Source: Apostichopus japonicus
Lineage: Eukaryota
Assembly: GCF_037975245.1 (NCBI RefSeq)
Contig: NC_092565.1
Location: forward strand, 23,210,063-23,274,062
Direction: 5' to 3'
Length of the DNA stretch: 64,000 nucleotides
This document shows positions 10,301 through 54,278 of this stretch, piece after piece (position 1 is the first letter of the stretch; each line of letters begins with the position of its first letter). Both the position numbers and the translations under genes were made by a program. The notes beneath the pieces are model-generated. The model was not told the origin of the DNA, made no database searches, and saw only the letters and a program-made list of their open reading frames with translations.

Positions 10301-10351
10301 ACAACTAATGAAGAGCATGATGAAGTACCTCAGGAGGAAATGAATACTATG
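10301..10351 (+). CDS. 51-nt cassette exon copy 4
   Basis: Identical exon and splice context. Confidence 0.45.
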
Positions 10352-11627: not shown

Positions 11628-11678
11628 ACAACTAATGAAGAGCATGATGAAGTACCTCAGGAGGAAATGAATACTATG
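11628..11678 (+). CDS. 51-nt cassette exon copy 5
   Basis: Identical exon and splice context. Confidence 0.45.
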
Positions 11679-12564: not shown

Positions 12565-12615
12565 ACAACTAATGAAGAGCATGTTGAAGTGCCTCAGGAG
12601 GAAATGAATACTATG
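12565..12615 (+). CDS. 51-nt cassette exon copy 6 (variant HVEVP: GAT>GTT, GTA>GTG)
   Basis: Same context. Point variants keep the frame open. Confidence 0.4.
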
Positions 12616-13429
12616 GTATGTACCATAATATTTTGGTAAATTAATTTAAGACAATAATTATAGGTATGGGTATTAAACTATACAAGCTAGAATACACAAT
12701 AGATGTAATCTATATACCCTAAGAATATAAAATATAACAGAATATGCATATTGAATCCCTCATATAACAGGTGAAAATATTCTACTGAACCCGTCCCATA
12801 CCAAGCAGTTTTGATGATTTTCACACACATGATTTAGTGCATGGTACATTCAATTGTTGGTCAGAATCGGGACATACATACAGTCAAATGTGGTGCAAAC
12901 TGTAGATTTGCATTGTTTCACACAGATGATTTGACCATGGATACTTTTGTGGGGCTATGGTAAATTTCACAAACATGATTCAATAAGCCCTAGTACAATT
13001 TTTTTTAAATTGTATCTAAACAACGTCAGTTGTGGTAGCTGCATGTTAACTATATTACGCTATCATGTATTGGTCAGTCAAGACATTTAGGGCAGAGGTG
13101 CCATTCAGAAGCTGTGTATCCCACTTTGTCATCACAAGGTTCCTAGATCAAACTACTGTCAGACTATACCGTAGGTTAAAATTCTCTCCAGCTATGCATT
13201 GAACATATGGCCTCATACGGGGGAAAGGCTCCATCAGATAAAGAATATTGCATTGGTGGTCCCAGGAACAGAGCGGTAATTATTGATATTGTACACACCA
13301 TGTATGGATGCCAATTGTTACATTCTTGATCATTTTAAGAACACATCCCAATAAAGACAGGTCCTAAATCTCTAAGCATTATATTTCTTTCAATCAAGAT
13401 CAATAATTCACTGATTGTACCTTTTGCAG

Positions 13430-13480
13430 ACAACTAATGAAGAGCAGGATGAAGTACCTCAGGAGGAAATGAATACTATG
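13430..13480 (+). CDS. 51-nt cassette exon copy 7 (variant CAT>CAG, H>Q)
   Basis: Same context in a more diverged unit. Confidence 0.4.
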
Positions 13481-14364
13481 GTATGTACTAAAATATTTTG
13501 GTAAATTAATTTAGACAATAATTATAGGCATTGGTATTATACTATATACAAGCTAGAATACACAATATATATACCATAAAAATATAAAATATATCAGAAT
13601 GGGCATATTGAATCCCTCATATAGAACAGGTGAAAATATTCTACTGAACCTGTTCCATACCAAGCAGTTTTGAGGCTGTGAAACAAAGGATCGACCAGAA
13701 ATATAGAAATAGCATAGTCTGAAGCAGTATCTATACGCTGTGTCAGCTATGATGATTTTCACACACATGATTCAGTGCATGGTACATTCAATTGTTGGTC
13801 AGAATCGGGACATACATACAGTCAAATGTGGTGCAAACTGTAGATTTGCATTGTTTCACACAGATGATTTGACCATGGATACTTTTGTGGGGCTGTGGTA
13901 AATTTCACAAACATGATTCAATAAGCCCTAGTACACCTTTTTTTTTAAATTGTATCTAAACAACGTTAGTTGTGGTAGCTGCATGTTAACTATATTACGC
14001 TATCGTGTATTGGTCAGTCAAGACATTTAGGGCAGAGGTGCCATTCAGAAGCTGTGTATCCCACTTTGTCATCACAAGGTTCCTAGATCAAGCTACTGTC
14101 AGACTATACAGTAGGTTAATCCTCTTCAGCCATTGATGAGCATATATGGCCTAATACGGGGGAAATGTTCCATCAGATAAGGCAATTGGTGGTCCCCGGA
14201 ACCGAGTGGTAATTATATTGATAATACACTCCTGTATGGATGCCAATTGTGTGGAAATTCTTGATCATTTTAATAACACACCCCAATATAGACAGGTCCT
14301 AAATCTCTAAGCATTATATTTATTTCAATCAAGATCAATAATTCACTGATTGTACTTTTTGCAG

Positions 14365-14415
14365 ACAACTAATGAAGAGCATGATGAAGTGCCTCAGGAG
14401 GAAATGAATACTATG
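14365..14415 (+). CDS. 51-nt cassette exon copy 8 (silent GTA>GTG)
   Basis: Same context. Confidence 0.4.
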
Positions 14416-15710
14416 GTATGTACCATAATATTTTGGTAAATTAATTTAAGACAATAATTATAGGTATGGGTATTAAACTATACAAGCTAGAATACACAAT
14501 AGATGTAATCTATATACCCTAAGAATATAAAATATAACAGAATATGCATATTGAATCCCTCATATAACAGGTGAAAATATTCTACTGAACCCGTCCCATA
14601 CCAAGCAGTTTTGATGATTTTCACACACATGATTTAGTGCATGGTGCATTCAATTGTTGGTCAGAATCGGGACATACATACAGTCAAATGTGGTGCAAAC
14701 TGTAGATTTGCATTGTTTCACACAGATGATTTGACCATGGATACTTTTGTGGGGCTATGGTAAATTTCACAAACATGATTCAATAAGCCCTAGTACACCT
14801 TTTTTTTAAATTGTATCTAAACAACGTTAGTTGTGGTAGCTGCATGTTAACTATATTACGCTATCGTGTATTGGTCAGTCAAGACATTTAGGGCAGAGGT
14901 GCCATTCAGAAGCTGTGTATCCCACTTTGTCATCACAAGGTTCTTAGATCAAGCTACTGTCAGACTATAGAGTACATGAAGGTTAAAAACCCCTTCAGCC
15001 ATTGATGAGCATATGGCCAAATACGGGAAAGCTTCCATCATGCTAAAATACACAATATATTACTATATAATCTATAACCTAAGAATATAAAATATATCAG
15101 AATGGACATAGTCAATACCTCATATAACAGGTGAAATATTGTACTGTCTACTGAACCCGTCCCATATCAAGCAATTTTTAGGCTGCAAAACAAAGAATCG
15201 GCCAGAAATATAGAAATAGCATGGTCTGAAGCAACAGCTATTATGATGATGGTCATGTCAATCATAGCATTGGAATTCCATATCGGCCTGATAAAAAAAC
15301 TGGACAACTATATTCAGTTTTGCTTACAGGTTCTGCATGAACTAGCTGTAAAGATGTTTGTATTTTGCTCTCCCATATCCATTCAATGAAATGGTTGACT
15401 CGGTACAGGAAGAGTCTCTTATGTTAGACAAATTCACTGATCTATGTTTTGCTCAGAAGCTGATCTTAGGACTGAACCTGTCTTGATGTCCTGGCCTAGT
15501 TGCGTGACCTATTCCTAGGGATTGGGGAAATGTTTTTTTTCTGACACAATATACCTTTTTCTTGTTCTTAGAAAATTCATGTTTTTCTGTTTTAACATAA
15601 CAAATTAAAAAAGTTGATTGTGAAAATAGTTTGATCTGTTATTTTGTTACATTTAAATGTCATTCTAAATATGTTTCATACTTACTTTGTTAATTTTATT
15701 CTTGTTTTAG

Positions 15711-17660: not shown

Positions 17661-18114
17661 GTAAACAGTCTTGCATAAATTATAGGCCTATCTCAGTGAA
17701 TGTTTCCCAGCTGTCTTGATGATGCATATCTACAAGTATTAATTATCAGGGGTACTGTTAATTAGCTAAAGACTAGACTTTTAAGTCGCCAAAATGAAAA
17801 GATCTAGTCGCCATGGCCACCAGAATATACTGTATGTGAAAGGTGTGATCAGATTATCTGTGTGAAACTAGAATCTGCAGTTTGCTCCACACATGATAGT
17901 GTCTATGGGTACCATTGGCTTACAATTGCAACTGATCAATGTACCAATGAATCACTTGGCACTCCAGTAATGTTGGAAGGTGAAAGCCAAAGACCAAGAA
18001 TTGGCAGCTAACTAACAATGTCAGGCAATATGTATTGCAGCTGGAGAGTTATATATTGTATATCAACAATGAATTTATATGGTTTATTGATTCACATTAT
18101 TCTACTTCTTGCAG

Positions 18115-18165
18115 ACATCTGATGATGATAGTGACAAAGCTATCTACGAAGAAAATGATTCCAAG
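18115..18165 (+). CDS. 51-nt acidic exon copy 1 (TSDDDSDKAIYEENDSK)
   Basis: cttcttgcag|ACATCTGATGATGATAGTGAC...GATTCCAAG|gtatgtac. Same length and phase as the upstream TTNEEHDEV cassette. Confidence 0.5.
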
Positions 18166-18387
18166 GTATGTACAGTACTACCCTTGCAGTTACAGTAATT
18201 ATTTCAAACCACACTTTTTCAAAAAACAATTGAGTCTCCTATTCCAGTTACAATGCAGATAAATAAATGGAATGGAAATATCACTTGAACAATATGTATT
18301 GCAGCTGTCACCTGGAGAGTTATATATTGTATATCAACAATGAATTTATATATGGTTTATTGATTCACTTTATTCTACTTCTTGCAG

Positions 18388-18438
18388 ACATCTGATGATG
18401 ATAATGACAAAGCTATCTACGAAGAAAATGATTCCAAG
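18388..18438 (+). CDS. 51-nt acidic exon copy 2 (TSDDDNDKAIYEENDSK)
   Basis: Tandem duplicate with the same splice context. Confidence 0.5.
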
Positions 18439-18655
18439 GTATGTACAGTACTACCCTTGCAATTAATTATTTCAAACCACACTTTTTCAAAAAACAATTG
18501 AGTCTCCTATTCCAGTTACAATGCAGATAAATAAATGGAATGGAAATATCACTTGAACAATATGTATTGCAGCTGTCACCTGGAGAGTTATATATTGTAT
18601 ATCAACAATGAATTTATATATGGTTTATTGATTCACTTTATTTTACTTCTTGCAG

Positions 18656-18706
18656 ACATCTGATGATGATAATGACAAAGCTATCTATGAAGAAAATGAT
18701 TCCAAG
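18656..18706 (+). CDS. 51-nt acidic exon copy 3
   Basis: Tandem duplicate with the same splice context. Confidence 0.5.
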
Positions 18707-19477
18707 GTATGTACAGTACTACCCTTGCAGTTAATTATTTCAAACCACACTTTTTCAAAAAAACAATTGAGTCTCCTATTCCAGTTACAATGCAGATAAA
18801 TAAATGGAATGGAAATATCACTTGAACAATATGTATTGCAGCTGTCACCTAGAGAGATTCAAAAACTTACTGGTTTGGATATTTACGAGTGACGAGCTTA
18901 CCTGTCTCCTCACAACCTTAGCACCTCATTCTACCGTGCCTATAAAGTCCTGGTAAAATAATAACACTGTGCGCCCTCTATGACCGAACCCCCCCTCGGT
19001 CACTCCTCACTACTCATGAGACCACTCCTTAAAAGTGGCCTCACGGTCACCGAAATAGGGGTGGCCAGAATCCTCTGGCCACCCCCAAGGACTCCCGTCG
19101 ACTAAACTTCTCAAAGGTGAGCCCTTAACAAAAGGCACTGATGCCTTCCTAGCAGGGAGAGTGTAATCCTCCCCGCCGCAGCGGGTAAGGGGGGGGGGGA
19201 CACTCTCCTGAGCCCTGCAGGCGAAACTACCCCTTTTTCCTAACAAGGAGCCTCATCCTGTAAAGGCCCAACACTTGCTAACCCTAAGACAACTTAGGTG
19301 AGTACGCCTATGAAAAACACAGGGTGCAAAGTTACCCTCACCGATAGACCTGGCCGGTGACTCTTAGTAGTTGTTGGCTCTGTCTATCTGGTGTTGTGCT
19401 TGGAGTCGTGAGCCTAGTCGAACGACTGCTCCCCCGTCCGGCTGTGTCCCACCCCCTCGGGGGAGGGAGGCGGGAAT

Positions 19478-21761: not shown

Positions 21762-22052
21762 TACTCACCAGGAACAAACTCCCAACAGGGGATGTGTAGG
21801 GTGGGTTTGTAGAAATTCCACCTCATAAATCCTGGCTGTTTAACGGAGTCCAGGGAGTGACTCAGCAAACACAAAGGCGTTACTAAATGTTTAGTCTTTT
21901 GCTATGATAGCGTTATTAGAGGTGTAAGAAATATGTTACCGAAACCCTTTAGGGGCTATTATTTCAAAACAATTTCCGTTAAGACATTAATATAACATTA
22001 ATATAACGTAATATCTCATAGACATCTTATGTCAACGTTTTATCAACACCAC

Positions 22053-24290
22053 ATTTAACGTAATAAACACGTATTGAATGTTATGATAACGTACCCGTTA
22101 CTTCTCAAATCTCTTCCTGTCGAGATGTGTCCATTTCGTAGTGCAGTAAAGGTATCCAGCTTCCTATTGAAACCACCTAGCGCCTAGGCTAGTCAAGACT
22201 AGGCCATCAGGTGCTACGAAATGCAACTCTGCTTAAGATGTCGGAACATCGAACATTGTTCATAAAGCGCATGCTGTATGTTCGGAGCGTGTTAGCGCTT
22301 GTAACTTGCTGGGGTTGTATCCTACCCCTTTTTCAACTTACTAACGCGTTTGTCTTGGTAATTCACCAAAGAAATAGGAAGAAAGGCTTATTCCATAGGA
22401 TCGCTCACGTAGTCGATAGCTCGTTGCAGTAAAAGTTGAGCTTACACGTGTCAAGCCAGGTGGCTGCTTGGCCCCCCCCTCCTCTCTTAACAAATGTGCC
22501 ACGTTGTACCTTTTTTTCTGGCAGTTTGCCAAGGATCTATGAGCGTTATGTTTCCTGGCACTTTGCCAAGTCTCGAGAAAGTTCTCTTCCTAGCAGTTTG
22601 CCAAGGTTTTAAAGTAAACGGAATACTGTAAGTCATGAGAACCGATTTAAAACCCCTCAGTCTTACGCATTTTAACATGTTCTGGAAGTGGGTTCACCAG
22701 TGTTTTAAACGACAGTGTTTTTAAACACAAGTAAGATTTTAACCTAGGCAAATGGCGATGAATTATGATTAGAGAGGAGTATAATTAGCGAGGAGAATAT
22801 GACCCATGAGTGTCTGCAGGTACTCGATAAATAAACACACATTTGGGATGTGTAGTGGTAGCGGTGTTTTTCCGCAAATGATTCGAACCTGTCGTCGCCG
22901 CTCAAGCTGCTAGTTCCGGGAGGGGGACACTCCCCCTATTCTGGGAAGCGGGAGTAACCGTCCTCTGTAACCCCGAAATCTAGGGGTCGACCTCGTCGTC
23001 TAGGCCGGACAGGTTGCCCGACGCTCTGCAAACCAGGTCGTCCTTGCCGGGGAACAAATCAGGTTCCATTCTTTGGTCTGGGATTGATCGTGGTGTCGCG
23101 GCCGGGCTGGCCGTGGGTTGCGATCGCTCCTCGGCACCGATGTCTGTGTTCGGTGTCTGGGGATAAGTATTTCTCCCTTTGCCGTGGGAACCTGGCTCGG
23201 GGCTGGTTCTCTTTTCGGATTGGGCGCTTGCCCCTGCTACCCCGTTCTGGGGGCCCGGCATTGGTAATCTCGTCGGTTCCCGGCCTCAGGACCGGCCGCG
23301 GCTCCGGTTAGGGGGTCTGCGGGCCGGGCTTCTGCACCTGCTACCCCATTCTGGGGGCCTAGCAGTTGTTAATCTCGTTGTAAATGTTGTTGTAGTTGTA
23401 AATGTTATTGTAAATGTCGCAGTTGTAAATGTTGTTACTCTCGTAGGCTCCCGACTTCGGGACCAGTTTTGGATCCCGTTTGGAGATCTGCGGACCGGGC
23501 TTCTGCCCCTGCGCCCCCGTTCTCGTCGGGCCCGGGCCCTCCGGAGCCAATCTCTGAGGACCCAGCAGTCGATTGTATAGCTCTGGTTCCCGGCTCCGGG
23601 GGCGGTCTCGGATCTGGAGTGAAAACTCGGTTCTGCCTTCCCTTCGAGTCTCGCCGGACCCGGGGTCTCGCCGGACCCGGGGCCTCGCCGGACCCAGGCT
23701 CCCGGAGCCCGTCTCTGTGTGCGTACCACGCCGGGTACCACCACGCCGGTATTCCTCGACCCGGACATTCTGTCCTTTCCGGTGGGATTTTTTTTTTTTT
23801 TTTTTTTTCTCGCCGGACCCGGGCTCCCCGGAGCCTGCTATGGGACCGGCTCCGTTTCAGCGACCCCTCGGTCGTACTCTCTCTCTCGGACCCGAGCTCT
23901 CCGTGGCCTGTAGCCCGCGCTCCATGGGTCTCTCTTGCTGCGACCCGGACTGAGACGTTGCCTCTAGCCCGGCCGAGCCGTGCCTCTTCTCAAGAGGTCT
24001 TTTCTTGGCAGGAGCCTTGCTCCTGCCCTTCCCTCTGGCCGTAATCAACCGGACGTCGCCGGGACCGTTAGGGGTACTCTTTCTCTCTCTCTCCACCTCT
24101 CCTTCGGCCCTCTCCTGGCCACTTTCCTCCACCTCTCTCACCACTTCTCCCTCCTCCTCTCTCTCTCTCTCTTGTCTCTCCTATATCTTTTTCTGGGGCA
24201 CCGATGGCCTAAGGAATCAAGTCCAGCCTGCCCTAAAGCTTGCTTCTTAGACTCGTAAGCCACTGGTCTATCTAGTGCCACTGGGCTGGC
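22053..24290. repeat. Unclassified dispersed repeat X, copy 1 (inside the DIRS-like element)
   Basis: Collinear with 33805-35300: acatttaacgtaa..tgaatgttatgataacgtacccgttac..; the tandem motif tggcagtttgccaagg; the tract gctagttccggg...ccgtgggaacct.gctcgggc..ggtt; and a CT-rich 3' tract. Internal (GCCGGACCCGGGG)n repeats, a T21 run at 23783-23803 and an A11 run at 24395-24408. Confidence 0.6.
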
Positions 24291-25186
24291 GAAAAATTTA
24301 TGCAGACCAGGCATGGGTCCCGTCTGGTGTAGGTTCTACACTTAGGACACAAATCGTGTTCGACCCAGGTTCTGCCTGGCCGAAACATCGAAAGTTAAAA
24401 AAAAAAACTTCAGCTGGTTACGAGACAAACTAAAACGCCCGAATTAAGGAAAGACTAACTCTTAAGCTTACGGAAAAATGCAAACTAGCAAGAGAACGGG
24501 AGAGAACGGGAGGTACATAACGGTGAGTAGAGGTACGTAGCGTAACCTAGCAACGGCAAAATACGAAAAACGCTATGAAGTGGCCTAACAAAATCAACAC
24601 AAGCTGAAAAAGAACATGAGAGAGCGAAATATAGAAGAAGAAATCGTGAATAGAAATACAATGTAGACATGCTATGAACATGAAAATACAACGACACGCC
24701 TATAGCGTGGGGAAGGGAAATTGGCGGGAAACCTAGGCAGTTCGCGGAACTGCTACCCCCGCAAAAAACCTAAGGGCGGAAACGCACTAGGAATAAAAAC
24801 AGTCCCCAAAACCCTCCCTTTCAACAAAAAAGGATACTTATCGGGCTGGAAAGGACTGCAATACTCCTAAGAATCCGAGGAAAGAAACTTCCAAAGATCG
24901 CTAAAGAAAACCAAGACGAAATCCAAGGGAAATATATCCACAAGAAATTCACGTGAAGACACTTTTAATGGTAGAATGAGTAGTGAGGAGTGACCGAGGG
25001 GGGGGGAGGGGTTCGGTCATAGAGGGCGCACAGTGTTATTATTTTACCAGGACTTTATAGGCACGGTAGAATGAGGTGCTAAGGTTGTGAGGAGACAGGT
25101 AAGCGAGGAGCGAAGTAAATTTCTATATTGTATATCAACAATGAATTTATATGGTTTATTGATTCACTTTATTCTACTTCTTGCAG

Positions 25187-25237
25187 ACATCTGATGATGA
25201 TAATGACAAAGCTATCTATGAAGAAAATGATTCCAAG
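25187..25237 (+). CDS. 51-nt acidic exon copy 4, lying to the right of the DIRS-like insertion
   Basis: Identical to copy 3. The unit is separated from the array by the 6.3-kb insertion. Confidence 0.5.
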
Positions 25238-25918
25238 GTATGTACAGTACTACCCTTGCAGTTAATTATTTCAAATCACACTTTTTCAAAAAACAATTGA
25301 GTCTCCTAATATTCCAGTTACAATGCAGATAAATGAATGGAATGGAAATATCACTTGAACTTAATAAGAACCATGATGGCATTAAATTTCATGCATGAGA
25401 AGAGTTAAGGCAATCTGAGTGAATCTCATAGTATATACCAGAACATATATATAGAGAGGCAACATTTCATCAATATGAAGAATTTCTTTCTCACCAATAA
25501 ATGGAGACCTATTAAAGTAGAATCATGAAGCAAACAAACATACCCTTAACTACCTTTAAGTATTAGGCATTAGTGTTGTATTACTGTAGTTCCACTAAAA
25601 TTAGATCAAAATAATAGTCCTTATATTCTTCATAGAAACAACATAAGGAAGCGGTACATATATCCTCCAATCTAAATTATCTGTATGAAATGATGGAAGT
25701 CTGCAGTTGCACCACAACTGACAGTGAGTATGGGTACCACTGACCTACAACTGTATGTTAGTACAATGCATGCATGTGTGTCGCTCAAAAGTATGCATAA
25801 AAAATCGTGTGTGGAAGTAGTGTTACATATAGGATTTAAAAAAATAGTTGATGAGATTTTCATGTCATGGTCTGTCAATTAAACCCAACTTCTGTTTGTA
25901 TAGGAACAAAGCACACTA

Positions 25919-27503: not shown

Positions 27504-27551
27504 GATTCCAAAAAGGCTAAGGAAACTTAGACAATTAAGAAGCTACTCTAA
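27504..27551 (+). CDS. Candidate terminal exon of the acidic-repeat gene (IPKRLRKLRQLRKLL, stop TAA at 27549-27551)
   Basis: Strong polypyrimidine tract and AG (tttcatgtctttttacattag|) at 27483-27503. A phase-0 join from the 51-nt exons gives a short basic tail and then a stop. All three frames hit stops before 27538. Confidence 0.35.
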
Positions 27552-29742
27552 AGATGATGCTGTCGAAAGTGATTTTGTACCATTTGATGAAGAAAGCGAC
27601 ACCTCTTCAGAAGAAGATGCTAACACATCAGATGAAGGCTATGCTGCTGATGAGAATCAACCCAGTACTAGTAATAAGGTATGTGTATTATCAACAGAGT
27701 ACACTGCCCCAGAGGAAAAATCAAAAAGAGCTTGGAACAGACAACACTACTGCATCTACTGTGAGAAAACTGTTCTACAAATAGCACGACATTTCAAAAC
27801 TCATCATTTTGATGAATCATTGGTGATTAAGGCCTTAAATGAACCTAAAAAGTCAAAGGAACGAAATGCCATTTTTGAAGAATTAAGAAAAAAGGGGGAC
27901 CATGCCCACAATATAAAAGTCTTCAAAGAAGGAAAAGGTCAACTTTTGGTGTATAAAAGACCACAAATGGGGCTACTGGATGCAGAGGATTTCATTCCTT
28001 GTCCAGATTGTCACGGATATTTTGCAAAAAGATCTCTCTGGAGACACCAGAAAAATTGCACCTCAGAATCTAAAAATGAAAGTAAACAAACCTTGGGCCT
28101 TCGGAGAGCTGCCAGAGTACTGCTTCCCACAAAGGCAGACTGCAGTTCAAAACTGCAGAACATACTTGCAGGTATGAAGGCTGACAATATTGTATTAACA
28201 ATACGTGCAGATCCTTGGTTATGCAAATTGGGGGAACACTACATCAATGACAGCCCAAATGCACACTACATTGTATCAGATAGGATGAGATCTGTTGCAC
28301 GTCTTCTTCTCGAGACCCAAAAGCTAAATTGTGCCATAAAATCAGCTAAAGATTTAGTAAATCCATGCCATTTTGATAATGTAATTTCAGGTGTGAAGGG
28401 CTGCTGTGGGTTTGACGATGCATCGCAAATGTTTGCCACACCATCATTGGCTAAAAAGCTAGGTCAAAGCTTAAATGTGCTGGCAGATATAAGTATTGCA
28501 GAAGCAATAAAAGCTGCAGATGCTTCACAAGAGAACATGGCCGAGCAATTCTTAAAGCTTAAGAAATTGCAGTGGAACAAGAAAATTGCCACTAAAATCT
28601 ACAAACAGCAAAGCAAACAAAAGTGGCAAAAGCCCCCTAAAATACCACTAACAGCTGATACTGTGAAATTGTATCAACTATTATCATGTAACATAAAAGA
28701 GACAAAAGAAAGTTTGAAAACAGAGGTAACAACATCGCTATGGAGGGAGTTGGCCTCACTAACTCTTACACAACTGATAATGTTTAACAGACGTCGACCT
28801 GGGGAAACCCAGAATCTTAAACTGGAAGATTACAAACAACAAACAGGGCAAAAAAAAGACTTTCAAGATGAGATATATGATTCACTTCCAGTAGCACAAA
28901 AAATTGCCTCAAAAAGGCTAAGCCTAATAATGACAAGGGGTAAGCGAGACCGCGGTGTTCCAGTAATGCTAACCCCCAACATGAAAGATTCAATAGAAAT
29001 ACTGAACAACACTAGGGAACTTGCTGGTGTTGATCCCCAAAACCCTTACATCTTTGCATGCCCATCAGGGGAGTCTCTACAGCCTCTTCGTGGATATGAT
29101 TGCCTGCATAAATATGCACAACAGTGTGGGGCTCAAAATCCTGAACGCCTTACAGCCACAAATATGAGGAAGCATCTTGCTACATTGTCACAAATTTTGA
29201 ATCTTTCAGAATCAGAATTAGAACAACTGGCTAATCACTTGGGGCATAATATCAGTGTTCACAAAGAATACTACCGCCTTCCACAAGATGTGATATTTCT
29301 TGCGAAAGTCAGCAAACTGTTACTTACTGCTGAAAAGGGCCATATTCATAAGTATCAAGGAAAAGCTTTGGCAGATTTTGAAATAGATAATAAAGAACTC
29401 TTGTCAGATAGAGAAATGTCTGATGAGAATGAAAGTGAGATAGATGAAGTTGAAACTCAAGAAATACCTGATAGCCAGGCTCATACAACTGTCAATACAA
29501 AATACAAAAAGAGAGTAATATCCTCAAGAACAAAATGGAGTAAACATGAAGAAACGGCTGTCATGAATGACCCACAGCTTAAGAAAGCCATCAAAACCAT
29601 GCATCCTCCTGCATACAAAGCATGTCATGATGCAAGAGAAAACAATGCCTGTTTGCAAAATAGGTCAATTACACAAATCAAATCCAAAGTTTGGAACATT
29701 ATACAGAAAAAATCTAAAGCACAGTTACAAAAGGAGCATTAG
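27538..29742 (+). CDS. Crypton-like tyrosine recombinase ORF (734 codons, stop-to-stop). Domains in order: acidic N-terminal stretch, two C2H2/C2HC-like zinc fingers, YR N-terminal and catalytic domains, and a C-terminal Myb/SANT-like tail.
   Basis: Uninterrupted frame from 27538 to TAG at 29740-29742. Zinc finger 1 is HYCIYCEKTVLQIARHFKTHH; zinc finger 2 is CPDCHGYFAKRSLWRHQKNC. YR box I is LIMFNRRRPGETQNLKLEDY. A beta-hairpin Lys in IMTRGKRDRGVPV. Box II is NMRKHLATL...LANHLGHNISVHKEYYRL (His and Tyr nucleophile). C-terminal tail RTKWSKHEETAVMNDP...RSITQIKSKVWNII. The first in-frame ATG is at ~27966, after zinc finger 1, so the true 5' end is probably an upstream or spliced exon. Confidence 0.7.
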   Translation, partial: RSYSKDDAVESDFVPFDEESDTSSEEDANTSDEGYAADENQPSTSNKVCVLSTEYTAPEEKSKRAWNRQHYCIYCEKTVLQIARHFKTHHFDESLVIKALNEPKKSKERNAIFEELRKKGDHAHNIKVFKEGKGQLLVYKRPQMGLLDAEDFIPCPDCHGYFAKRSLWRHQKNCTSESKNESKQTLGLRRAARVLLPTKADCSSKLQNILAGMKADNIVLTIRADPWLCKLGEHYINDSPNAHYIVSDRMRSVARLLLETQKLNCAIKSAKDLVNPCHFDNVISGVKGCCGFDDASQMFATPSLAKKLGQSLNVLADISIAEAIKAADASQENMAEQFLKLKKLQWNKKIATKIYKQQSKQKWQKPPKIPLTADTVKLYQLLSCNIKETKESLKTEVTTSLWRELASLTLTQLIMFNRRRPGETQNLKLEDYKQQTGQKKDFQDEIYDSLPVAQKIASKRLSLIMTRGKRDRGVPVMLTPNMKDSIEILNNTRELAGVDPQNPYIFACPSGESLQPLRGYDCLHKYAQQCGAQNPERLTATNMRKHLATLSQILNLSESELEQLANHLGHNISVHKEYYRLPQDVIFLAKVSKLLLTAEKGHIHKYQGKALADFEIDNKELLSDREMSDENESEIDEVETQEIPDSQAHTTVNTKYKKRVISSRTKWSKHEETAVMNDPQLKKAIKTMHPPAYKACHDARENNACLQNRSITQIKSKVWNIIQKKSKAQLQKEH

Positions 29743-33778: not shown

Positions 33779-33808
33779 CTAACCCTAAGCTAACCCTAGC
33801 TAACCCAC
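33779..33808. repeat. Short interstitial telomere-like tract (CCCTAA-like x3, imperfect)
   Basis: ctaaccctaagctaaccctagctaaccc sits immediately 5' of repeat X copy 2. Confidence 0.4.
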
Positions 33809-35300
33809 ATTTAACGTAAACACGTAATGAATGTTATGATAACGTACCCGTTACTCCTCAAATCTCTCCATGTCGAGACGTGTCAATTTCGTAGTGTAGT
33901 ACAGTAGAAGTATCCAACTTCCTATTGAAACCACCTAGCGCATAGCCACGACTAGGCTATCAGGTGCTACAAAATGCAACTGTGCTTAAAATGTCGGAAC
34001 ATCGAACATTATTCATGAAGCGCATACTGTATGCTCGGAGCGCTTGTACCTTCGCTGGGGTTTTATCCTACCCCTTTTCCAACTTACTAACGCGTTTGTC
34101 TTGGTAATTCACCCAAAAAGTAGAGAGAGAGGCTTATTCCATGGGATCGCTCACGTAGTCGACAGCTCGTTGCAGCAAACGTTGAGCTTACACGTGTCAA
34201 TCCAGGTGACTGCTCGCCCCCCCCCCCCCCTCTCATAACAAATATACAGCGCGGGTATATCTTCTTGGCAGTTTGCCAAGGTACTAAAAAGGGCTTCGTT
34301 TTCCTGGCACTTTGCCAAGTTTCGAGAACGTTCTCTTCCTGGCAGTTTGCCAAGGTACTACGAGACTGTACTAGAATCGCTTCAGTTTTGCGCATTTTGA
34401 CATGCTCTAGAGGGGGTTCCACAAGCGTTTTAAACAACAAAACACAAGTAAGGTTTCAAACCTAGACATATGGCGATGAATTATAATGAGAGAGAAGTAT
34501 AATTAGCGAGGAGAATATGACCCATGAATGCCCAGGAAATCTATGTCATGTCCTGGTTTCTGCTGGTACTCGTTAAACACACATTTGGGATGTGTAGTGA
34601 TAAATGGTGTAGCGATTGCAGTGTCTTTCCGCAATTGATTCGAACCTGTCGTTGCAGCTCAAGCTGCTAGTTCCGGGGGGCAACACTCCCCTGATGAAAG
34701 AGACTTTTCCCCCTCTTGGAAGCGGGATTAACTTTGAGGCTGGGGATACGTATATCTCCGTTTGCCGTGGGAACCTCGCTCGGGCCGGCTTTCTTTTCGG
34801 ATTGGGCGTTTGCCCTTACTACCCCGTTCTGGGGGCCCAGCAGTTGTTGATCTCATCGGTTCCCGGCTCCGGGACCGGCTCCTGGGATCCGGAGTGGAAC
34901 CTCGGTTCCGCACTCCCTGTGAGGGCTCGCCGGACCCGTGGTCTCGTCGGACCCGGGCCCCCGGAGCCCATCTCGGTGTGCGTACCTAGCCGGGTACCAC
35001 TCCCCTCGACCTGGACATTCTGTCCGTTCCGGTCGGAATTTCAAATGGGCTATTTATTGGCCTTGAGCCTTGCCCTTGCCTTCACCCTTGGTCATAGAAT
35101 CCGGACGGTGCCGGGACCTTGGGGGCAATATCTCTTTCTCCTCTCTCTCTCTCCTCCGGCCTCTCTCGCCGGACTCGGGCTCCCGGAGCCTATCTTCCTC
35201 AAAATAACCCCCCTATCATCCCAGGGAGGGATCGCTGGACCTCCCATCTACCACAACGTTTTAAGTTTTACCTCTTAAAGTGCCCCCAGTCAACAGGAGG
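33805..35300. repeat. Repeat X, copy 2. Its 3' end grades into the satellite array.
   Basis: See copy 1. Its end (35196-35250, ctcaaaataacccccctatcatcccagggagggatcgc) matches the first ~40 bp of the satellite monomer. Confidence 0.6.
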
Positions 35301-44862: not shown

Positions 44863-45614
44863 AACCTGACTGCATAGGTTCCTTTTGCTAAAGCAAGGAA
44901 CCAAAAAGTGATTGTAAACAAGGGAAGATTGGAAATTATTTCACGTCTTGACAGCAAGATACCAAACTTTTAAGAGAAAAGCTACTTAAGCTCTTTTGAG
45001 TGGCAGATTGGAGTGATAAGCCCACCCATATTGTATACAGAGGGAGAGAAAGCGTTCCCCTTTTTCTCTTCTTTCACAACACACTAGTAGATCTAGCTTT
45101 GACGAAACACATCCACCCACCCTTCAGACGGCTAGTTCGCGACCGTGGTCAAAAATCTCTTATTACACTCGAAATGTATTGATATAATATTACTTTAACA
45201 TATACACACGCACCTGGAATATATGCTTTTCAGAACAGCTAGGCAATACCATTGACACATTCAAGTAGTAGGCATACTATATCATATACATATCGATAAA
45301 AAGATTTCATTTTCTTTCTCAAAATAGGACCAAAATGTGTTGTCATGGTAACAGGGATTGCTTGCGTGGTCACGTGGTAACGTATGGTGTCACAGCTACG
45401 CTTGTGAGCAGGTGGATTAATCCTCGATGGGGGGAATTTTGTAGTGTTCCCCTGTCCGATCGAAGAGTTCAGAAACGGGGCCACTGACGATTCTTTGTTG
45501 ACTGGAACATCCCGGGTTATATGCATATTCATATCCTCTGATTCTCAATCAATTCCCATCGAAAGATATGGCCATCATACATGAATAATCATCAAGTATA
45601 TCTTGATGAATCCT

Positions 45615-46141
45615 TCAATGGCTAAACAACATTGGATGAAGCGGGTGACTCGCGAGGGGAAAAAATGGCGGATAGAAGTTGATCTGTGGACACATCTGAG
45701 ACTGTGCTAGGAGGGGATCAGGGTAGGCAGCAGGGAGGGGCTGGTAGGGATTATCCCGGAAGAGGACTTTGACGGCAACTTTCTTGGCTGGTGAAGGAGA
45801 CATCATCTCGGCGGCCATTTGCTTCCTTTTCGTCTTGTATCTCCGATTCTGGAACCATATTTTGATTTGTTGTTCAGTGAGTTTGAGAGCAGCGGCGAGA
45901 TCTCCCCTCTCTGGACCAGAGAGATACCGCTGATGCCTAAACCGCCTCTCCAGTTCGTAAACTTGTGCGTGGGAGAAAGCTGCCCGTGAGCGCTTTTTTC
46001 GCGGCGCGTTCGAACCGCTCGTGGATGAGGAAGAGGAGGAGAGTGACTCCGTTTTTGAGAGCGAGTCACTGTTTTGGTCAGAAGTACTCTGTACGCTGTG
46101 TGGTCGCGAGGGTGGTTTGGAATCAGTTGAGTCACACTGTC
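45615..46141 (-). CDS. nkx3: NK3-class (bagpipe/Nkx3) homeobox gene, exon 2 (homeodomain plus C-terminus, stop TGA)
   Basis: Minus-strand acceptor tttctttctgttcacag|GACAGTGTGAC. The encoded homeodomain [62 protein letters not shown] matches the NK3/Bapx signature ([60 protein letters not shown]). [12 protein letters not shown]2-SD-like motif lies downstream. The phase-1 acceptor (x+GA) matches the exon 1 donor. Confidence 0.85.
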
Positions 46142-48680
46142 CTGTGAACAGAAAGAAATATAAGAGCAATAAGTCAACGTTTTTACTCATTAAGGAAATT
46201 TGTTTAGACAGGGAAGATAGCAATGCGGTCGGGAGTGGTATTACCAAATGGAGTGGTTCAGAGAAAAGATATTTCAAACTCCGCGGGTGGACAAAAAACC
46301 CACTCAGTTATACGACGGGGTATAGAGCAAAAGAACTAAAACACGAAAGAGTGAATGACCTAATGTTTTCCTGAAGAAGATATGTTTATTATGATCGCCG
46401 TAAAAGTCAGTATCGCGTATTTCGACCTTGCCTTGTTTTCACGGTCGTAAACAATGAGTTTATAGTTTATCTTTATGTGGTTTGTTGTAAAACATAACAT
46501 CCTTAGCGAAACCATATCATGTTGAGTGTAAAAATTGTTTATTTTCACGATTAAAACGTTTCGAAAGATTTTTTTATACTTTAATCGAGGACACTTATAT
46601 ATGCAAAGTATTAGTGTTCAATGTTGTTTCTATTTAAGTTATGACTATACTATAACCTTCGTAAAGAAATACGTGGTGGGTGTCTCCCTTGATTACCAAC
46701 AATGATAAAATTTATATTGATTCTAAGAAGAAGAAAAAAAAGTTTTCCAACTTGTTAATTTTTTTTTATCAACCCAAATGGAAATGAAAGGGGAATATCT
46801 TGGATCTTTATTGTAAAGATACATTAATGTTAATTCTTAAGAAATCAGGTGCATAAATTTCATAACGATAAGTTACGATGTGTTTAACGATGTGTTTTAC
46901 TCAAGTTGGTAAGTTTTAAATGGCCTCGATGGGCAATCAGAAGGCTGCTAATTAATTAACTTAATGACTCAAGTGTGACAGTAACGTATCATGACTTTCT
47001 CCATGAAACCGGCAAAATGGAGTGGAAGGGGTGTAGGGGTGTGTGCTGGTGGAGAGGGAGGGGGGTTGGGGTTGGAGAGAGAGAATGTTATCGAAACTGG
47101 AAAATGACAACAGTGAGTGTTCAACTCCCGCCCCCCCCCCCCATGCGCCCAATCTCTATCTCATGCTCACTTTCCATATAATAAATTAATAATAACATCC
47201 GGTTATGTCATCACTTGTCGGTGAACAACTGCCGGTATGTGTTATCTTACATAGAGAGAAGTCTTTCTACACGCTGAAGGAGCATGAATGCTTGCACTGT
47301 ATAATACTGTAGAGAGGACATGCTTACATCAACATTCAAGAATCACAAACATGCAGCAAGATTTCACATCTCCGGGTTATATATTATGTCCTTCCTCTAA
47401 CCGTCATATATTCTCTCTCTCACTCGAGAAACGCCATGAAAATAACGATTTTAAGAATAACAGATCGCCTAAATATGTTGTACCCTATTCCTTGTGAATC
47501 AAAAGAATGATTTATGAAGACCCTCTCTCTCTGGAAGAGGTTACAGGGGTTTAGTGGCTGCACTTGGCCGTTTCGCTTTTAGCAAAAACACACCAAAGTG
47601 AGGAGGATGACAGTCCGACAACAAACATATTCAATTAAATTTATTTCCTTGTTTGAGCAGAGAAAAAAGTTTATCTACGATTAATTTGAAGCTTGGGTAA
47701 TACTTTCAGCTCTTCTTAAAGAGGATTCTTTTGTTTCCGTTTAAGGTTGGTTGGAAAAGCTTTGTTTAACTAAGACTGTAAAGTGTGATAAATGCAAATG
47801 ATTAATAGACTTGACCCAAGAAGATAATCAAAGAAGATTCATCGTCTTGTTGAGACGGCAAAAATAATAGCCATTTATCCCTGAGAAAACATGAGGAGTA
47901 GAGTTGGGGAGAGGCAGGAGAGATGATGAAAAGAATGGCATGGTGTAATTCCTTTGTCTTATTAGAATAAGAAGACTTCATGCGTACAAAACAAAAGTGA
48001 CAGTTATTGTTCAATTAAAAAAATCTTAAATTAATTACTCAATTAGTTACATATACAAACAATTTAGTACCGAGAACAGCGCAGAGCATGCGCACAATGG
48101 CGCTCTCGATTCTTTGTTTCAGTAATCATCCGTGACAAATTTTAATCCAGTTGAAATATTCGAGTCACAAATTGGCGCAAAATTGATCTCGAAATAAAGT
48201 TTAGGTTTGTTTATAAGTTCTTACTTAATTATATTGCTGACTAAGGTATGCTCAATTCTTTATAATTTTGGAATGTGTAACTATAGAACTAAACTACTAA
48301 ATATAGATTTGAAAAATACATTTCTGACATAACAGAACTATGATTTCATATCCAATTATTTTTCAGTTTTCTCGTGTCTCGTTCCTGCATGTCAAATATC
48401 AAAATAATTACTCACTATTTGAGTGCAACCGCGCGTAAAACGTTAATCTAAGAAATGTCTATACCTTAAATCTCTAGTATTTCGATGTCGGAGTCGCAAA
48501 AACTTTTGAAATTTTACTGTAAGCTTCAAACCCTTTAATTTTACACACTTTTCTTCAAATAAATCAGAATATCCTTAGTTTATTATCTGCATTTAAGAAA
48601 GTCAATAATGACAAGAAATACTTAATCGAGAAGGAGAGATCACTGAATCTTGTCAGCTAAGATAATTTTGTTTATTAAAC

Positions 48681-48768
48681 ATTTCGAAATGAAGGAACTT
48701 TAAGTCAGATTTCGAAATGAAGGAACTTTAAGTCAGATTTCGAAATGAAGGAACTTTAAGTCAGATTT
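48681..48768. repeat. 3 x 28-bp tandem repeat (atttcgaaatgaaggaactttaagtcag)
   Basis: Direct reading. It lies in the nkx3 intron. Confidence 0.85.
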
Positions 48769-51700
48769 TATAAAAGAAATTGTGCTAAAGAGTCTTTTAG
48801 AAAGACTTGTTTTTAGATTTCCGTAAACAAACTGTATGTTTACTGTGATTTAAACAGACGGACCAACACTTAATTCCAGGAGGTTGTTCTCTTACAATAC
48901 GAAAACAATATCAATTTATATTAAAATTTGTCATTTTCATGCTTTTCATGGTTTGCTCGTTGTTGTTGTTGTTGTTTTTGCTTTTTTACAAAACGACTTC
49001 ATTTTTTTCTCGTGTCTTTAAATATTTATACTGAACTAATTGTTAAAAGATTTAAAATATCATATAAACATCATTTGAAAAAGAGTGGATGAATTGAAAT
49101 TTTGGTAATTGAAGTGAACTGACCCCCCATTTACAAATTTCTTTTAATTTTTGACAATGTGGAATCATATATTTTACTCCTGATCAATGTTATGATATAA
49201 ACATTACCACCATGTTACAGTTTAGGCGGTTATGCCTACTTGTAGGTACGGTTGTTTCATTACTCAAATTTCATTGTATTCTGTTGCACATTATTATAAT
49301 TGTAATGTTCTTTTTTACCGTTTGTATAACGCACCAAAATATTCTTGAACTTGTCTTATTTTTTTTTCATTTCTCTCTCTATAAGGTTATTATAGACAAT
49401 GGGCACAATCGGAGACAATGGATTTCACAAATCTACAGGTTCATTCGTATAACTACATTCGTTCAATACACTAAATTTCTTGGAAGAAACCCATTGTTAT
49501 AATATTGTTATAATATTATAGACTCATCTCACGGGAATGAGTCTATGCAATGGGTGACCGTACTATACTACTAACTACTCACGCGCGTGACTCATTTCTA
49601 TGTCAAAAAGTGACCCTACATCGGTCAACAGACGCCCATCCTACACCTGTGGTTAAGGTACTGACATCTTTTCGCCACGGGTAGGTCAAGTTGAGGAATA
49701 GTAGTTATACATACACAGCAACCTGCTGTTGCAATAGTCTATAGCAAGCTATATCTATCTTCGTTATTATAGTGTGACAATAAATGTATTCACACGGACC
49801 AATGTAAACCCGAAGCAGAAAATACAAAAATTGTATGCGCTGTTTCAATACTCATAGATTGACATGTTCAAACCATATTCATTCCTTTAGGTCAGTAATT
49901 TGTAATCAGTCTAAAAATATTAATCTGATAACATATTTGTGGTAAATACGTAGCTTAATATTTGAAATTAAAATATAGTATGTATTTATCTACAAACTGG
50001 GGGAATGAACAATGTTTCAGTCAGGGCAAGCTAGATCAGTTTAACAATTGACAAATTTACCACAATAAATTGTGTTATAACTTCATTGTTATTAATATTG
50101 TTGTTATAACTTCATACTTGTTTTTTTTTCCGCGATGGCAAACATAAATCAGATTCAATTATACGGAGTAATTTGAACAATGAAGACATTGCCTAATATG
50201 ACAATAGGAAATATTATAAATACACGCAAATAATAACCATGCAATAATTTCAAAGTGATAATTAATTAATTAATGGGTTAGCCTGTAGATGAACCTAGGA
50301 ATACAGTAATCTTACAAAGCCTAACTGTCTATTTTTATAAGCACGTAATCAGTTTATAGTAGAGTTATCCTTCATTTGGTTTTTTACTATTTGCTTATCC
50401 AATTTTCAATAAAATTGTGCTTAGTTCTTTCCGGAATATAGGACAAAAAAATGAAACATCTATAATTCTATATAACTACTGACTAAACAATGTTTTATGC
50501 TCCGTCGTTCATTGACTATATATGTAGTGAAGTATAATCTAATTGATGTACAAAAATATATATCAAAACTTAACAATTATTCGCAAGTTACAGATACGGA
50601 GTATATTTTTTCAAATGAAATTCATATATTGTATTCTCATTAATCATTGATCAAATTAGTATTGTTTAGATTGTAAGCGAATTGTATTGTGACATTGTGT
50701 AAACGAATTGATCAGTTTTTAGTTTATAAGTATACCGTAATCAACGGTAAAGGTTTACATCATTCATGTACTTATTTGTCAGGGGAGTTGTTCCCTAACA
50801 ACTTTACATTTATGGACTAAGTAAGCATTATGTATCTTCTACTTTGTATAGGTACCGACTTCAAACGATTTAAAATATATAGTGTTGAAACTAAACCTTA
50901 ACACAGAGTTTGAGTTATTCCATCCATGAAGCTATACAATGAACCCCTGTCTTAATTTATAGTCGCATTGTTTTCTTATTTTGTTTTGTTTAATCACGCT
51001 AATTTGATTTGATTTGATTTTCTAGTTTTTCTATTGTTCCTTTTTGAATTATTAGTATTAGTAGCTTACAGTTCAAAGGAATACCATAAACTAAAGGCTC
51101 TACGTGTTCATGGTATATAAATGCGCAAGGTAAAATTCCTCTGTAAAGCTATATGAATAACATCATGTTTAATAAGTAATATAATTTGCTGGTATAACAG
51201 AAAACTGTTTTGCTGGTATAACAGAAAATTGTTTTTTATGTTAAATGTCATTTTACGTTACTCAAATATTTAATGCTAGGAGAGTATTTTAAACTTCAAG
51301 CCCTCGCGTTTGCATAGTAGTACAGCAAAGGCATTGAAAGGAAGAAGTCAATTTCTCAAATTAACTATAGACTACAAAAAAATATGTATATATAGGCGTC
51401 TACAAAAATTATCATGAAATTTACCTTAAACTGGCAGTGGTTCCAACATTTCTAGTATTTTTATTAGTATTATTTCAATTTATATAGTTTCAATGGATTT
51501 TCATCCTCAATAATGCAATTATCTGTAGAATATTTGCCTTTTATTCAAACGTTATTGTTTAATTAAAACACTGAATACCCAGTACATATCAATTATTGGT
51601 CTCATAACTCATTACTATTGTTGTTTAATAATTTAGACTGCATGAGACGTATAGGTACACAAATCCATGTATTCAAATGTTTCTTATTTTAAGTTAAGTT

Positions 51701-52453
51701 ACTACAATATTCATTTCATTCTTGGCTCAATTTCTCTATAACATGATGGATTAACACTTATTCGTGTTTTTGCAGGTCAATCTATGGAAATATTAAAACA
51801 TGCTTTTATATATTCAGGGCTATCACAGGCATAAATCAGAAGAAGAATTATGAATCTACAAAATAAGGCTAAATGAAATGATGACCCATTTATTGAATCC
51901 TGATAGAAGGTAATACCAGAAATTTCTCGAATATGCATGTCGGCTTTATACCGGTGATGAGTATCAAAAGAAGAAAATTAATTTCTCGAGATTTGCATAA
52001 TTCTTTCCACTAATCCGTTACTATTTATCTTTATCGAAAGTCCTGTAATTAAAACTAATTTGATATATTTAGGCAAATATGAAATATGGAACATATAGGA
52101 CAATATATATGATGACTTGGTTACTTCCCATTTTCGCGTCGGATTTTATTAAATGCTATGCAATCATTATGAATTTCTTGCGCGATATAACCAAGTTATT
52201 GTTATTTTCTATTAAGTTAAAGATATTTACGAGGAATTCTCTATGGTGATAACTGACTCAGAATTGATCACATCCATTATTAACATTTCGACGGTGTATA
52301 CGTCGGTGTATATAGGGTCTACCGTTGAGGCCAAATTCATGGTATATACAACGCATTTGTCATAACCACATTTACGTCTTCGACGTAATAATTGAAATTT
52401 CAGTTTTTTTTATTTTACGTTCCGTTATATGTGAATCGTTACATTCTTCTTAC

Positions 52454-52823
52454 CTTTTAGCACAGGCGATGATGGCGCAGATCCACGTGACACCATGTCA
52501 AGTGTTTCCTTGGCGTCTCTTTCTAATTTCTCCGTCATCTTCCAGCAACTCGTCAGAATATCGTGATTATCAACCCCGGATGCAGAGAGAGCAACTTCTT
52601 TTCTACCGACATCGTCCGTTGAACAAGTCAGCTGTTTTCTCCTCTTCACGGCACTTTGGATGTCACGAAGTTCTCGTTGTATCACGGTATATGATAATTC
52701 TGTAGTTATTTCACCCTTCGTTACTATTTCATCCGTGTCTCGACATTTACCGAGAATATCATCGATAGAGAACGGGGTGACCCTGGCGTGTCGTATTTGG
52801 TCGTCTTGCTTAGCGGAATCCAT
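52454..52823 (-). CDS. nkx3: NK3-class homeobox gene, exon 1 (start MDSAKQ..., TN/eh1 motif TPFSIDDIL)
   Basis: ATG at 52823-52821 with a strong Kozak context (agtaaaATGg). An upstream ATG at 52859 has a weak context. Exon 1 encodes MDSAKQDDQIRHARVTPFSIDDILGK, i.e. the tinman (TN) motif typical of NK proteins. Donor CTAAAAG|gtaagaag, phase 1. The intron is ~6.3 kb. Confidence 0.75.
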
Positions 52824-54278
52824 TTTACTAATCCTTCCTGAAGTCTCAGTTATACACATATAAAATAGATTTGTGAATGAATCCCTGCAAGATAAGGCAA
52901 CACAATTGCCGTATAGAACTCAACTGCAAAAATAAAAAAGTTCGTGTCTCCTTGTCAGACGCTGAGAGCAAAGTAAACTCTTTCCCCCACTTGTTCGGTA
53001 TAGTTAATCTCTTCTTGTTCAAGCGAATCGTGAAAACTGAAATACCAGTCCAATGTAGATCGTTATGAATGATCGGCTAGAAGAAAAATATAAAAACCCC
53101 AGATGTTTCGTTTGGCTTAAGGTTAATGAGAGAGTTGATAATGCTGCATGGTAGTCTAGTTAAAACAGCGCAAACACCCGTCAATTCTGGATCTTGTAAA
53201 TGTTTTCTTTGGTTATCTTTCAAACCAATTTGATTGACTAGCGAAATAAACTAACTGAAGAACAACCGACCAATCCAAGCTTGAAGATGAAGAACTTTTA
53301 ACTCAAACTCTTTCGACCGTACAATTTTTTCCCCTTTCTTTATTCACATATCCAACCGCAGAAAACTTAGGACTACTCCGCCCCTCTTTTCTCATTTAAG
53401 AAATTCTCCCTGTGGGATAATCACAATTCTCTGAAGTGACAAGATCATGGAAGATTGACAGGTTTAAGTCCAAACCGCTAGCACAGGCTTCTGAAAGGCT
53501 CTATAACCAAACGGTGGGAGGGAGTCTGGGAGAGGTGAAGAAGGCTCCCTATTGGTCGGTACTTGAGATGGGGCTTAACCAGACTCAAACAAAGCCCAGC
53601 GTGTTCCGTGGAGGTTCTTGATGACTCTACACGCAATAATTTGGACCATCAAGTGTGCTCCCCCTCAAGAGTTATTGGGAAGTCAAACAACTGATTCTTT
53701 TCTTTATTAAAAAACTTTCTATCCTTACCTGAAGGCGAAAACTAAGGATTACTAACGGGTTTATTCAATTGTATCTCACGGGAGCTAAGTACGTCAATTT
53801 TATCCTAATTGATAGGTATCAGATACGGAGGGGGGGGGGGTGCTTACCAGATTGGTGATTGATTTCTGTAGAGCCAGTCTTCTTTTTCTACTGCTATGTA
53901 AATTTCTTTATTCATGTGGATGCAGTGTCAATTCGAGATGCTAATTAAGGTTTGGGTGTCATAAAGTAAACAAGAACTGATATGAAAAAAAAGGAAAAAT
54001 TTAGGTCAATAATTTTTGTGAGCTCTTAATGTCAATCATTTTCGACAATAACAATTATAAAAGTTTAAAATGATGAGATAAATGTGACAAAATCATGTTT
54101 GGGTTTGAATAGGTTCAGCGATAAAGGTTGATCAATTGTATTAGAAACAAATGCTAGCCTCATGTTGTTCCACCTAAAAATAAATGACTCCGATTTCTGC
54201 GAGACATATTGCTATTACAAAAAAAAGAGGTATTTTAATGTACACGAAATTATTGATTTCAACGCCCAGCGTGATATA

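Follow-up and report, generated by a model that had tools for sequence, protein, structure and literature searches.

Nkx3.2 genes in other animals

Vertebrate NKX3-2 (Bapx1) and Drosophila bagpipe are members of the NK3 family of NK-like ANTP-class homeobox genes and have roles in the visceral mesoderm and the skeleton. Helix 3 of the homeodomain (Q50, N51, Y54) of this family reads NK-type TAAGTG-like sites, and the eh1 (Engrailed-homology-1) motif, also called TN, docks Groucho/TLE. In vertebrate Nkx3.2 a C-terminal motif contributes to repression. Tyrosine at homeodomain position 54 is a hallmark of the NK2/NK3/NK4 group. Here we describe a gene of this kind in a stretch of 64,000 nucleotides (nt) of the genome of the sea cucumber Apostichopus japonicus (contig NC_092565.1, forward-strand positions 23,210,063 to 23,274,062), referred to below as the window and numbered from its first letter. 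The locus is very probably the single A. japonicus orthologue of Nkx3.2/bagpipe.

Information is also available from other echinoderms. Sea urchin nkx3-2 is expressed in the central apical-tuft domain with foxj1, in dependence on FoxQ2 (PMC9629743), and belongs to the downstream part of the gene network of the anterior neuroectoderm (PMC5778778). For the sea urchin embryo, the documented site of expression is the central apical-tuft domain rather than the visceral mesoderm. NKx3.2 and FOXF1 are expressed in coelomic epithelial clusters of the regenerating intestine of Holothuria glaberrima (PMC11244903), a pattern that fits the classical visceral-mesoderm role.

Gene structure and splice support

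The gene is encoded on the minus strand and has two exons separated by a single long intron:

52454..52823, minus strand: coding part of exon 1, amino acids (aa) 1-123 and the first base of codon 124
46142..52453, minus strand: single intron, 6312 nt, GT-AG, phase 1, 32% G+C
45615..46141, minus strand: coding part of exon 2, aa 124-298, with the stop codon TGA at 45617-45615

Translation of exon 1 from the ATG at 52823 opens with MDSAKQDDQIRHARVTPFSIDDIL. The donor after 52454 reads AAG/GTAAGA (the slash marks the exon boundary), and the acceptor before 46141 reads TTCACAG/GA and follows a strong polypyrimidine tract (tract and acceptor, TTTCTTTCTGTTCACAG/GA). When joined, the exons form an in-frame coding sequence of 897 nt, equivalent to 298 aa, with the split codon G/GA, and the intron interrupts this sequence 48 codons ahead of the homeodomain. 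The G+C content is 50% in the coding sequence versus 32% in the intron. A preliminary description of this DNA had proposed a two-exon, minus-strand gene with a phase-1 intron of 6.3 kilobases (kb) and a product of about 298 aa, and its coordinates, phase and lengths all proved exact on recheck. The same structure, except for the start codon, is that of the RefSeq model XP_071828565.1. This is an intact, functional two-exon coding gene with a product of 298 aa, or of 310 aa if an upstream ATG is used.

The position of the intron is backed by a transcript. A spliced Holothuria transcript (Logan contig L001, 2622 nt) contains one continuous open reading frame (ORF; MEGEKQVDDTRQSRVTPFSIDDIL...SAPSSPILK-E-HCDSTDSK...homeodomain), the product of which is Holothuria leucospilota Nkx-3.2 (KAJ8025969.1, 290 aa) but for one conservative substitution near the C-terminus. 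The transcript aligns with the window in two blocks that correspond to exon 1 and exon 2, the second starting from 46143. It also aligns with the H. leucospilota genome (L005) in two blocks (1-731 and 730-2622, 98% identity). The H. leucospilota gene has a single GT-AG intron (AAAAG/GTAAGT ... CCACAG/AA) that is 6950 nt long, compared with 6312 nt in A. japonicus, and is in phase 1 at the homologous codon. Thus, the position and phase of the intron are common to two holothurian orders. The two proteins are 73% identical overall, with no difference (100% identity) between the start of the homeodomain and the end of the C-terminal motif. They have the TN motif in common, and the two loci share non-coding blocks, but the proteins diverge in the exon-1 linker and in the Ser-rich region ahead of the homeodomain.

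The product was compared with existing database entries. RefSeq XP_071828565.1 (310 aa, A. japonicus, annotated as 'uncharacterized protein') matches the two-exon product residue for residue and has the identical splice junction; it differs in having 12 extra N-terminal residues that start at an in-frame ATG at 52859, and it carries no protein name. The exact 298-aa sequence was not found in the protein collection searched. The gene is already public with the identical splice junction, and only the correct name is missing. One Logan contig encodes a product (P0003, 257 aa) that is identical over exon 2 but has a tryptophan codon (TGG) in place of the TGA stop (45615-45617), and continues for 66 more residues. 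Either a polymorphism or an error in sequencing accounts for this.

Family assignment

The homeodomain is identical (100%) to that of Holothuria, 92-93% identical to those of other echinoderms and 88% identical to that of vertebrate Nkx3.2. Its identity to the homeodomain of Drosophila bagpipe is about 81% (the fly sequence was entered by hand). The preliminary description had called the homeodomain nearly identical to the vertebrate and fly NK3 signature; the likeness to NK3 holds, but these values show that the wording was too strong. A neighbour-joining tree calculated from 59 homeodomain positions (Kimura distance, 1000 bootstraps) places the gene within the NK3 clade with 95.5% bootstrap support. 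The reference homeodomains of NKX2-5, NKX2-1, vnd, BARHL2 and C15/Tlx were checked against their PDB entries. Tree, homeodomain identity, database ranking and motifs all support the NK3/bagpipe identity first proposed for the locus.

Among the 120 best database matches, all vertebrate proteins that carry a family name are Nkx-3.2. The invertebrate names among these matches are bagpipe-like, zampogna-like and Nkx-3.2, with a few echinoderm and hemichordate proteins named 'Hmx-like'. The match from the octocoral Paramuricea clavata (P0027, named 'MSX-1') is a model in which an NK3-type homeodomain and an AKKVAVK motif are fused with an Msx homeodomain, which implies that NK3 and Msx are immediate neighbours in the octocoral genome. 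Three vertebrate matches (P0004, P0005 and P0007), each with two homeobox Pfam entries, look like comparable fused models.

Vertebrate NKX3-2 and bagpipe have in common with the holothurian gene the TN/eh1 motif, an NK3-type homeodomain with Tyr54, and AKKVAVKVL(V/F)RD after the homeodomain. They differ from it at the homeodomain positions discussed below (F14Y, R21, A32G and V45I), in having LTETQ rather than LTEQQ, and in the linker, the sequence of which is unrelated. LTEQQ is shared by ambulacrarians, whereas other animals have LTETQ in the NK3 homeodomain. Sea urchin nkx3-2 (Strongylocentrotus purpuratus, NCBI 'homeobox protein Hmx', P0012) has 92% homeodomain identity and shares all three motifs, but at 423 aa the protein is longer, with insertions rich in His.

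Conserved motifs and selection

Three conserved motifs were identified in the protein:

52752..52778, minus strand: TN/eh1 motif TPFSIDDIL, aa 16-24, from the translation
45819..45998, minus strand: homeobox, aa 172-231, with Q50, N51 and Tyr54 (Y225), from Pfam, tblastn, translation and the tree
45753..45788, minus strand: NK3-type C-terminal motif, which contains VAVKVLFRD, aa 242-253, from the translation; related to the NK2-specific domain

The only Pfam homeodomain found (PF00046) covers aa 173-229 (E = 1.4e-20), a match much better than chance would give. Both short motifs had been pointed out in the preliminary description, TPFSIDDIL in exon 1 and VAVKVLFRD in exon 2, and both are present. 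We aligned 12 NK3 orthologues. Each of the five echinoderm classes is represented among them, alongside amphioxus, a mammal, a brachiopod, an annelid and a centipede. Invariant in this alignment are T16, F18, I20, I23 and L24 of the TN motif, Q221, N222 and Y225 of the homeodomain, and eight columns of the C-terminal motif (A242, K244, V245, A246, V247, V249, L250 and D253).

Synonymous sites are saturated between Apostichopus and Holothuria (synonymous differences, pS, 0.76-0.90). For the same pair, nonsynonymous differences (pN) are 0.009 from the homeodomain through the C-terminal motif (pN/pS about 0.01) and 0.034 in the TN motif (pN/pS about 0.05), and reach about 0.2 in the linker and about 0.3 in exon 1 overall. 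The TN motif, the homeodomain and the C-terminal motif are all under strong purifying selection. The possibility of a pseudogene was considered and rejected, given the intact ORF and the pN/pS of the homeodomain and C-terminal motif.

Several points weigh against the assignment of the locus. The tree was calculated by a distance method, and the outgroup sequences of tinman, bagpipe, NKX3-1, NKX2-2, MSX1, LBX1, NKX6-1, NKX1-2 and Antp were entered by hand. The homeodomain carries four substitutions common to both holothurians (F14Y, R21, A32G and V45I) at positions that are almost invariant or narrowly variable elsewhere in NK3, and these could alter the choice of partner or site. Past the stop codon, a poly(A)-like signal (ATTAAA) first occurs after 914 nt, and AATAAA is absent from the 2.6 kb that follow the stop. 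(No alignment with the window was obtained for the 3' untranslated region of the Holothuria transcript, which therefore does not place the poly(A) site.) No second homeobox was detected in the window with nine diverse homeodomain queries. The function of the A. japonicus gene is inferred by orthology. Finally, the start codon is ambiguous, giving a protein of either 298 or 310 aa.

Start codon and alternative readings

The ambiguity of the start codon arises from one short feature:

52824..52859, minus strand: optional extension of the N-terminus by 12 codons, MCITETSGRISK, which begins at an in-frame upstream ATG of weak context

It is possible, though rather unlikely, that translation begins at this ATG (52859) and that the product is the RefSeq protein of 310 aa instead of the one of 298 aa. 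This ATG is in frame and 5' of the ATG at 52823, it is the start chosen by RefSeq, and it is probably inside the mRNA, as judged by homology with the 5' end of the Holothuria transcript. However, its context is weak (TTTTATATGT, with T at -3 and T at +4), whereas that of the ATG at 52823 is strong (AGTAAAATGG, with A at -3 and G at +4). The 12 additional residues are without a counterpart in Holothuria, where the ATG that aligns with 52823 is preceded, five codons before it, by an in-frame stop. That upstream ATGs are tolerated in this gene is shown by an 8-codon upstream ORF at 53149. We regard the 298-aa protein as the conserved product, the conserved start of which probably lies 12 codons 3' of that chosen by RefSeq.

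A shorter gene consisting of exon 2 only, with exon 1 unrelated to it, is most improbable. Such a gene would encode the 191-aa protein that was deposited for the 2017 A. japonicus assembly (GenBank PIK55476.1, P0002, 'putative homeobox protein Hmx-like'), which is 100% identical to our product over exon 2 and lacks exon 1 and the TN motif. Two short Logan contigs also contain the 191-aa ORF, contiguous with about 0.9 kb of intron. However, this model starts at an ATG within the intron, so that its 17 N-terminal residues come from translation of the polypyrimidine tract and acceptor. Across 10 kb, the window matches the 2017 scaffold (MRZV01000214.1) at about 97% identity, and exon 1 is intact there (98.9% identical, with one amino-acid difference). 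Thus, the 191-aa model is an annotation truncation and not the product of an assembly gap. Furthermore, the TN motif with its invariant positions is encoded by exon 1, and the exons are joined at precisely this point in the Holothuria mRNA and, likewise, in the later RefSeq model. The two-exon gene is retained.

Membership of NK4 (tinman/Nkx2.5) or NK2 (vnd/Nkx2.1/2.2) rather than NK3 is scarcely credible. In a PDB sequence search NKX2-5 (84.4 bits) scored marginally over human NKX3-1 (83.0 bits), although the NKX3-1 chain in PDB lacks part of its N-terminus and belongs to a fast-evolving paralogue. The holothurian homeodomain has Tyr14 (VYELERRF), as do those of NK2 and NK4, and the C-terminal motif is similar to the NK2-specific domain, the consensus of which is VAVPVLVRDGKPC. 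But the motif here is the version VAVKVLFRD, with VAVKVL as in all NK3 orthologues, and no GKPC follows it. The homeodomain shares 68% of its residues with that of NKX2-5, 64% with that of vnd and 61% with that of NKX2-1, compared with 88-93% for Nkx3.2 orthologues, and features of NK2/NK4-type homeodomains (the R/K-R-R-V-L-F-S/T arm, YLSAPERE/D and, for NK2, QNHRYK) were not found in the homeodomain of the window. There are no NK2 or NK4 proteins among the 120 best database matches. The phylogeny, which the preliminary description had named as the way to separate NK3 from NK2 and NK4, groups the gene with NK2/NK4 in 0.1% of the replicates, and it stays in NK3.

Equally hard to credit is the suggestion of several NCBI names ('Hmx-like' or 'HMX3-B-like' for P0002, P0009, P0010, P0012 and P0034, orthologues from A. 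japonicus, sea urchin, starfish and a hemichordate) that the gene is a member of Hmx (NK5), as genuine Hmx homeodomains are 56-59% identical to that of the window and form their own clade (98.8% bootstrap, joined by the window sequence in 0% of replicates), Hmx has RRNKWKRQ where RRYKTKRK is found here, and the A. japonicus entry PIK55476.1 is already named 'Homeobox protein Nkx-3.2' in UniProt (A0A2G8L5D8). The Hmx references were genuine proteins from the database (six compared), one of them 100% identical to the HMX3 query used. Neither the Hmx-type homeodomain (TRTVFSRSQVFQLESTF ... QNRRNKWKRQ) nor the AQRxVRVPILYHE motif was found in the protein, and because these motifs are absent the 'Hmx-like' labels are automatic misnomers. 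The locus is thus treated below as nkx3.2.

Conserved non-coding elements

Random pairs of intron sequence from Apostichopus and Holothuria are 43.8 +/- 3.2% identical. Neutral sites are saturated between the two genera, and non-coding DNA that can still be aligned is therefore informative. Four collinear blocks were identified:

53352..53820, minus strand: conserved block that lies upstream of the ATG by 529-997 nt and shares 72% identity with H. leucospilota
47537..47869, minus strand: intronic conserved element of 333 nt, 74.5% identical to the H. leucospilota intron (E = 1e-49), collinear
46142..46366, minus strand: 3' end of the intron (225 nt) with its polypyrimidine tract and acceptor, 75.9% identical to Holothuria
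44903-45048: weak conserved block 3' of the stop codon, the fourth collinear block

The upstream block (about 470 nt) carries a CCAAT box and a GGGGCGGAG box. Its counterpart in Holothuria is immediately 5' of the 5' end of the transcript, for which reason we regard the block as probably the proximal promoter. The 333-nt intronic element is present in a single copy and contains TAAT-type and TGTTTG (forkhead-like) strings. Its perfectly conserved runs include TATTACCCAAG, ATAAATTTAATT, CTGTCATC, TTTTGCTAAAAGC and CCACTAAACCC. This element is a candidate enhancer. A missed coding exon at this position was considered and rejected, as each of the six frames contains stops and the element is left out of the Holothuria mRNA.

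Also present in the intron are simple repeats:

47020..47150, no strand assigned: plus-strand G-rich stretch, then a poly-C13 tract
48681..48768, no strand assigned: largest of the small tandem repeats, 28 nt x 3.1
46875-46897, 49493-49517 and 51185-51235: other small tandem repeats

The first of these had been described as a G-quadruplex-prone block. That description holds for the poly-C13 tract (47127-47150), which alone fits the canonical G-quadruplex pattern and does so on the gene strand. It does not hold for the G-rich part (47020-47080), where a pattern search found no canonical motif of four runs (G3+N1-7). There are 15 canonical G-quadruplex motifs across the window. The block recurs, apart from an indel of 2 nt, in the 2017 A. 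japonicus assembly and is not alignable to the Holothuria intron, so it is not conserved. The small tandem repeats that had been reported for the intron are real but unremarkable.

Genomic surroundings

The flanks that were scanned and found free of homeoboxes extend for 45 kb 3' and 11 kb 5' of the gene, and they hold no NK-cluster neighbour such as NK4, Lbx, Tlx or Msx. We found no literature on an NK cluster in Apostichopus, and broader queries returned only general background on NK clusters. It is possible, but doubtful, that holothurian nkx3.2 sits alone, outside a compact NK cluster, and is regulated by the compact conserved elements at 53352-53820 and 47537-47869.

Much of the remainder of the window is repetitive:

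1-15047: tandem array, period about 1327 nt, copies 90-99% identical
18041-18856: tandem repeat of 268 nt x 3, included by the RefSeq model P0244 as coding repeats (SDDDNDKAIYEENDSKT); a further copy, the fourth, at 25121-25360
22045-22809 and 33802-34527: G+C-rich direct repeats, 82% identical, on either side of a recombinase-like ORF
27505-29742, plus strand: long (recombinase-like) ORF, the C-terminal 745 aa (encoded by 27505-29739) of a 1017-aa RefSeq 'uncharacterized protein', 100% identity
35507-43216: satellite array of 7.7 kb, 204-nt unit x 37.7, 88% matches, starting 2.4 kb 3' of the nkx3.2 stop codon
56453-56574: microsatellite, pure (AT)61, 3.6 kb upstream of the nkx3.2 ATG

Searches of the whole window identified no Rfam families and no tRNAs. 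The alignment with the 2017 scaffold ends at 44900, short of the satellite array, and the two assemblies differ here.

The long ORF at 27505-29742 encodes a protein with the motif RKHLAT...LGH...YYRL (RKHLAT...LGHNISVHKEYYRL). The protein is multi-copy in A. japonicus (62-65% identical paralogues), and one of these paralogues is named 'Tyr recombinase domain-containing protein' in UniProt. It has patchy relatives (26-40%) in oysters, beetles and fish, often fused to SET, BRCT or other domains. The matches to paralogues and relatives and the motif, rather than any profile match, suggest a Crypton-like tyrosine-recombinase mobile element, and the direct repeats on either side of the ORF are possibly its terminal repeats. 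Possible upstream exons of the gene model occur at about 15.7-18.9 kb. The long ORF gave no Pfam, PHROG or PDB match, and searches of Pfam (also at E <= 10), PHROGs and PDB with the 640-aa ORF neighbouring nkx3.2 were all empty.

Predicted function and implications

By analogy with described members of the family, the homeodomain would bind NK-type (TAAGTG-like) sites via Q50, N51 and Y54 of helix 3, and TPFSIDDIL is the presumed docking site for the Groucho/TLE co-repressor. The C-terminal motif would add to repression, which would make the protein a sequence-specific transcriptional repressor. Judged by conservation, the block that lies about 0.5-1 kb 5' of the ATG probably serves as a promoter and drives transcription, and the 333-nt intronic element is a candidate enhancer. 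One likely site of action is the larval anterior neuroectoderm, in the central apical-tuft domain. Another is likely to be the coelomic and visceral mesodermal epithelium of the gut, including the regenerating gut, where the protein would act together with FoxF.

In summary, this is an ordinary, intact orthologue of a textbook developmental regulator, and current knowledge of the family is unchallenged. The finding serves mainly as an anchor, as it places a well-understood developmental regulator in the window. The labels 'uncharacterized' in RefSeq and 'Hmx-like' in GenBank/NCBI, the latter attached to echinoderm and hemichordate orthologues, should read Nkx3.2. Two corrections concern the gene models: the 191-aa GenBank model is truncated, and the conserved start is probably 12 codons downstream of that in RefSeq. 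The analysis also provides a short list of conserved non-coding elements for work on nkx3.2 in sea-cucumber gut regeneration and in patterning of the larval apical organ. If the 333-nt intronic element is indeed an enhancer read by FoxF or NK factors, it would offer a handle on the visceral and coelomic programme of gut regeneration.

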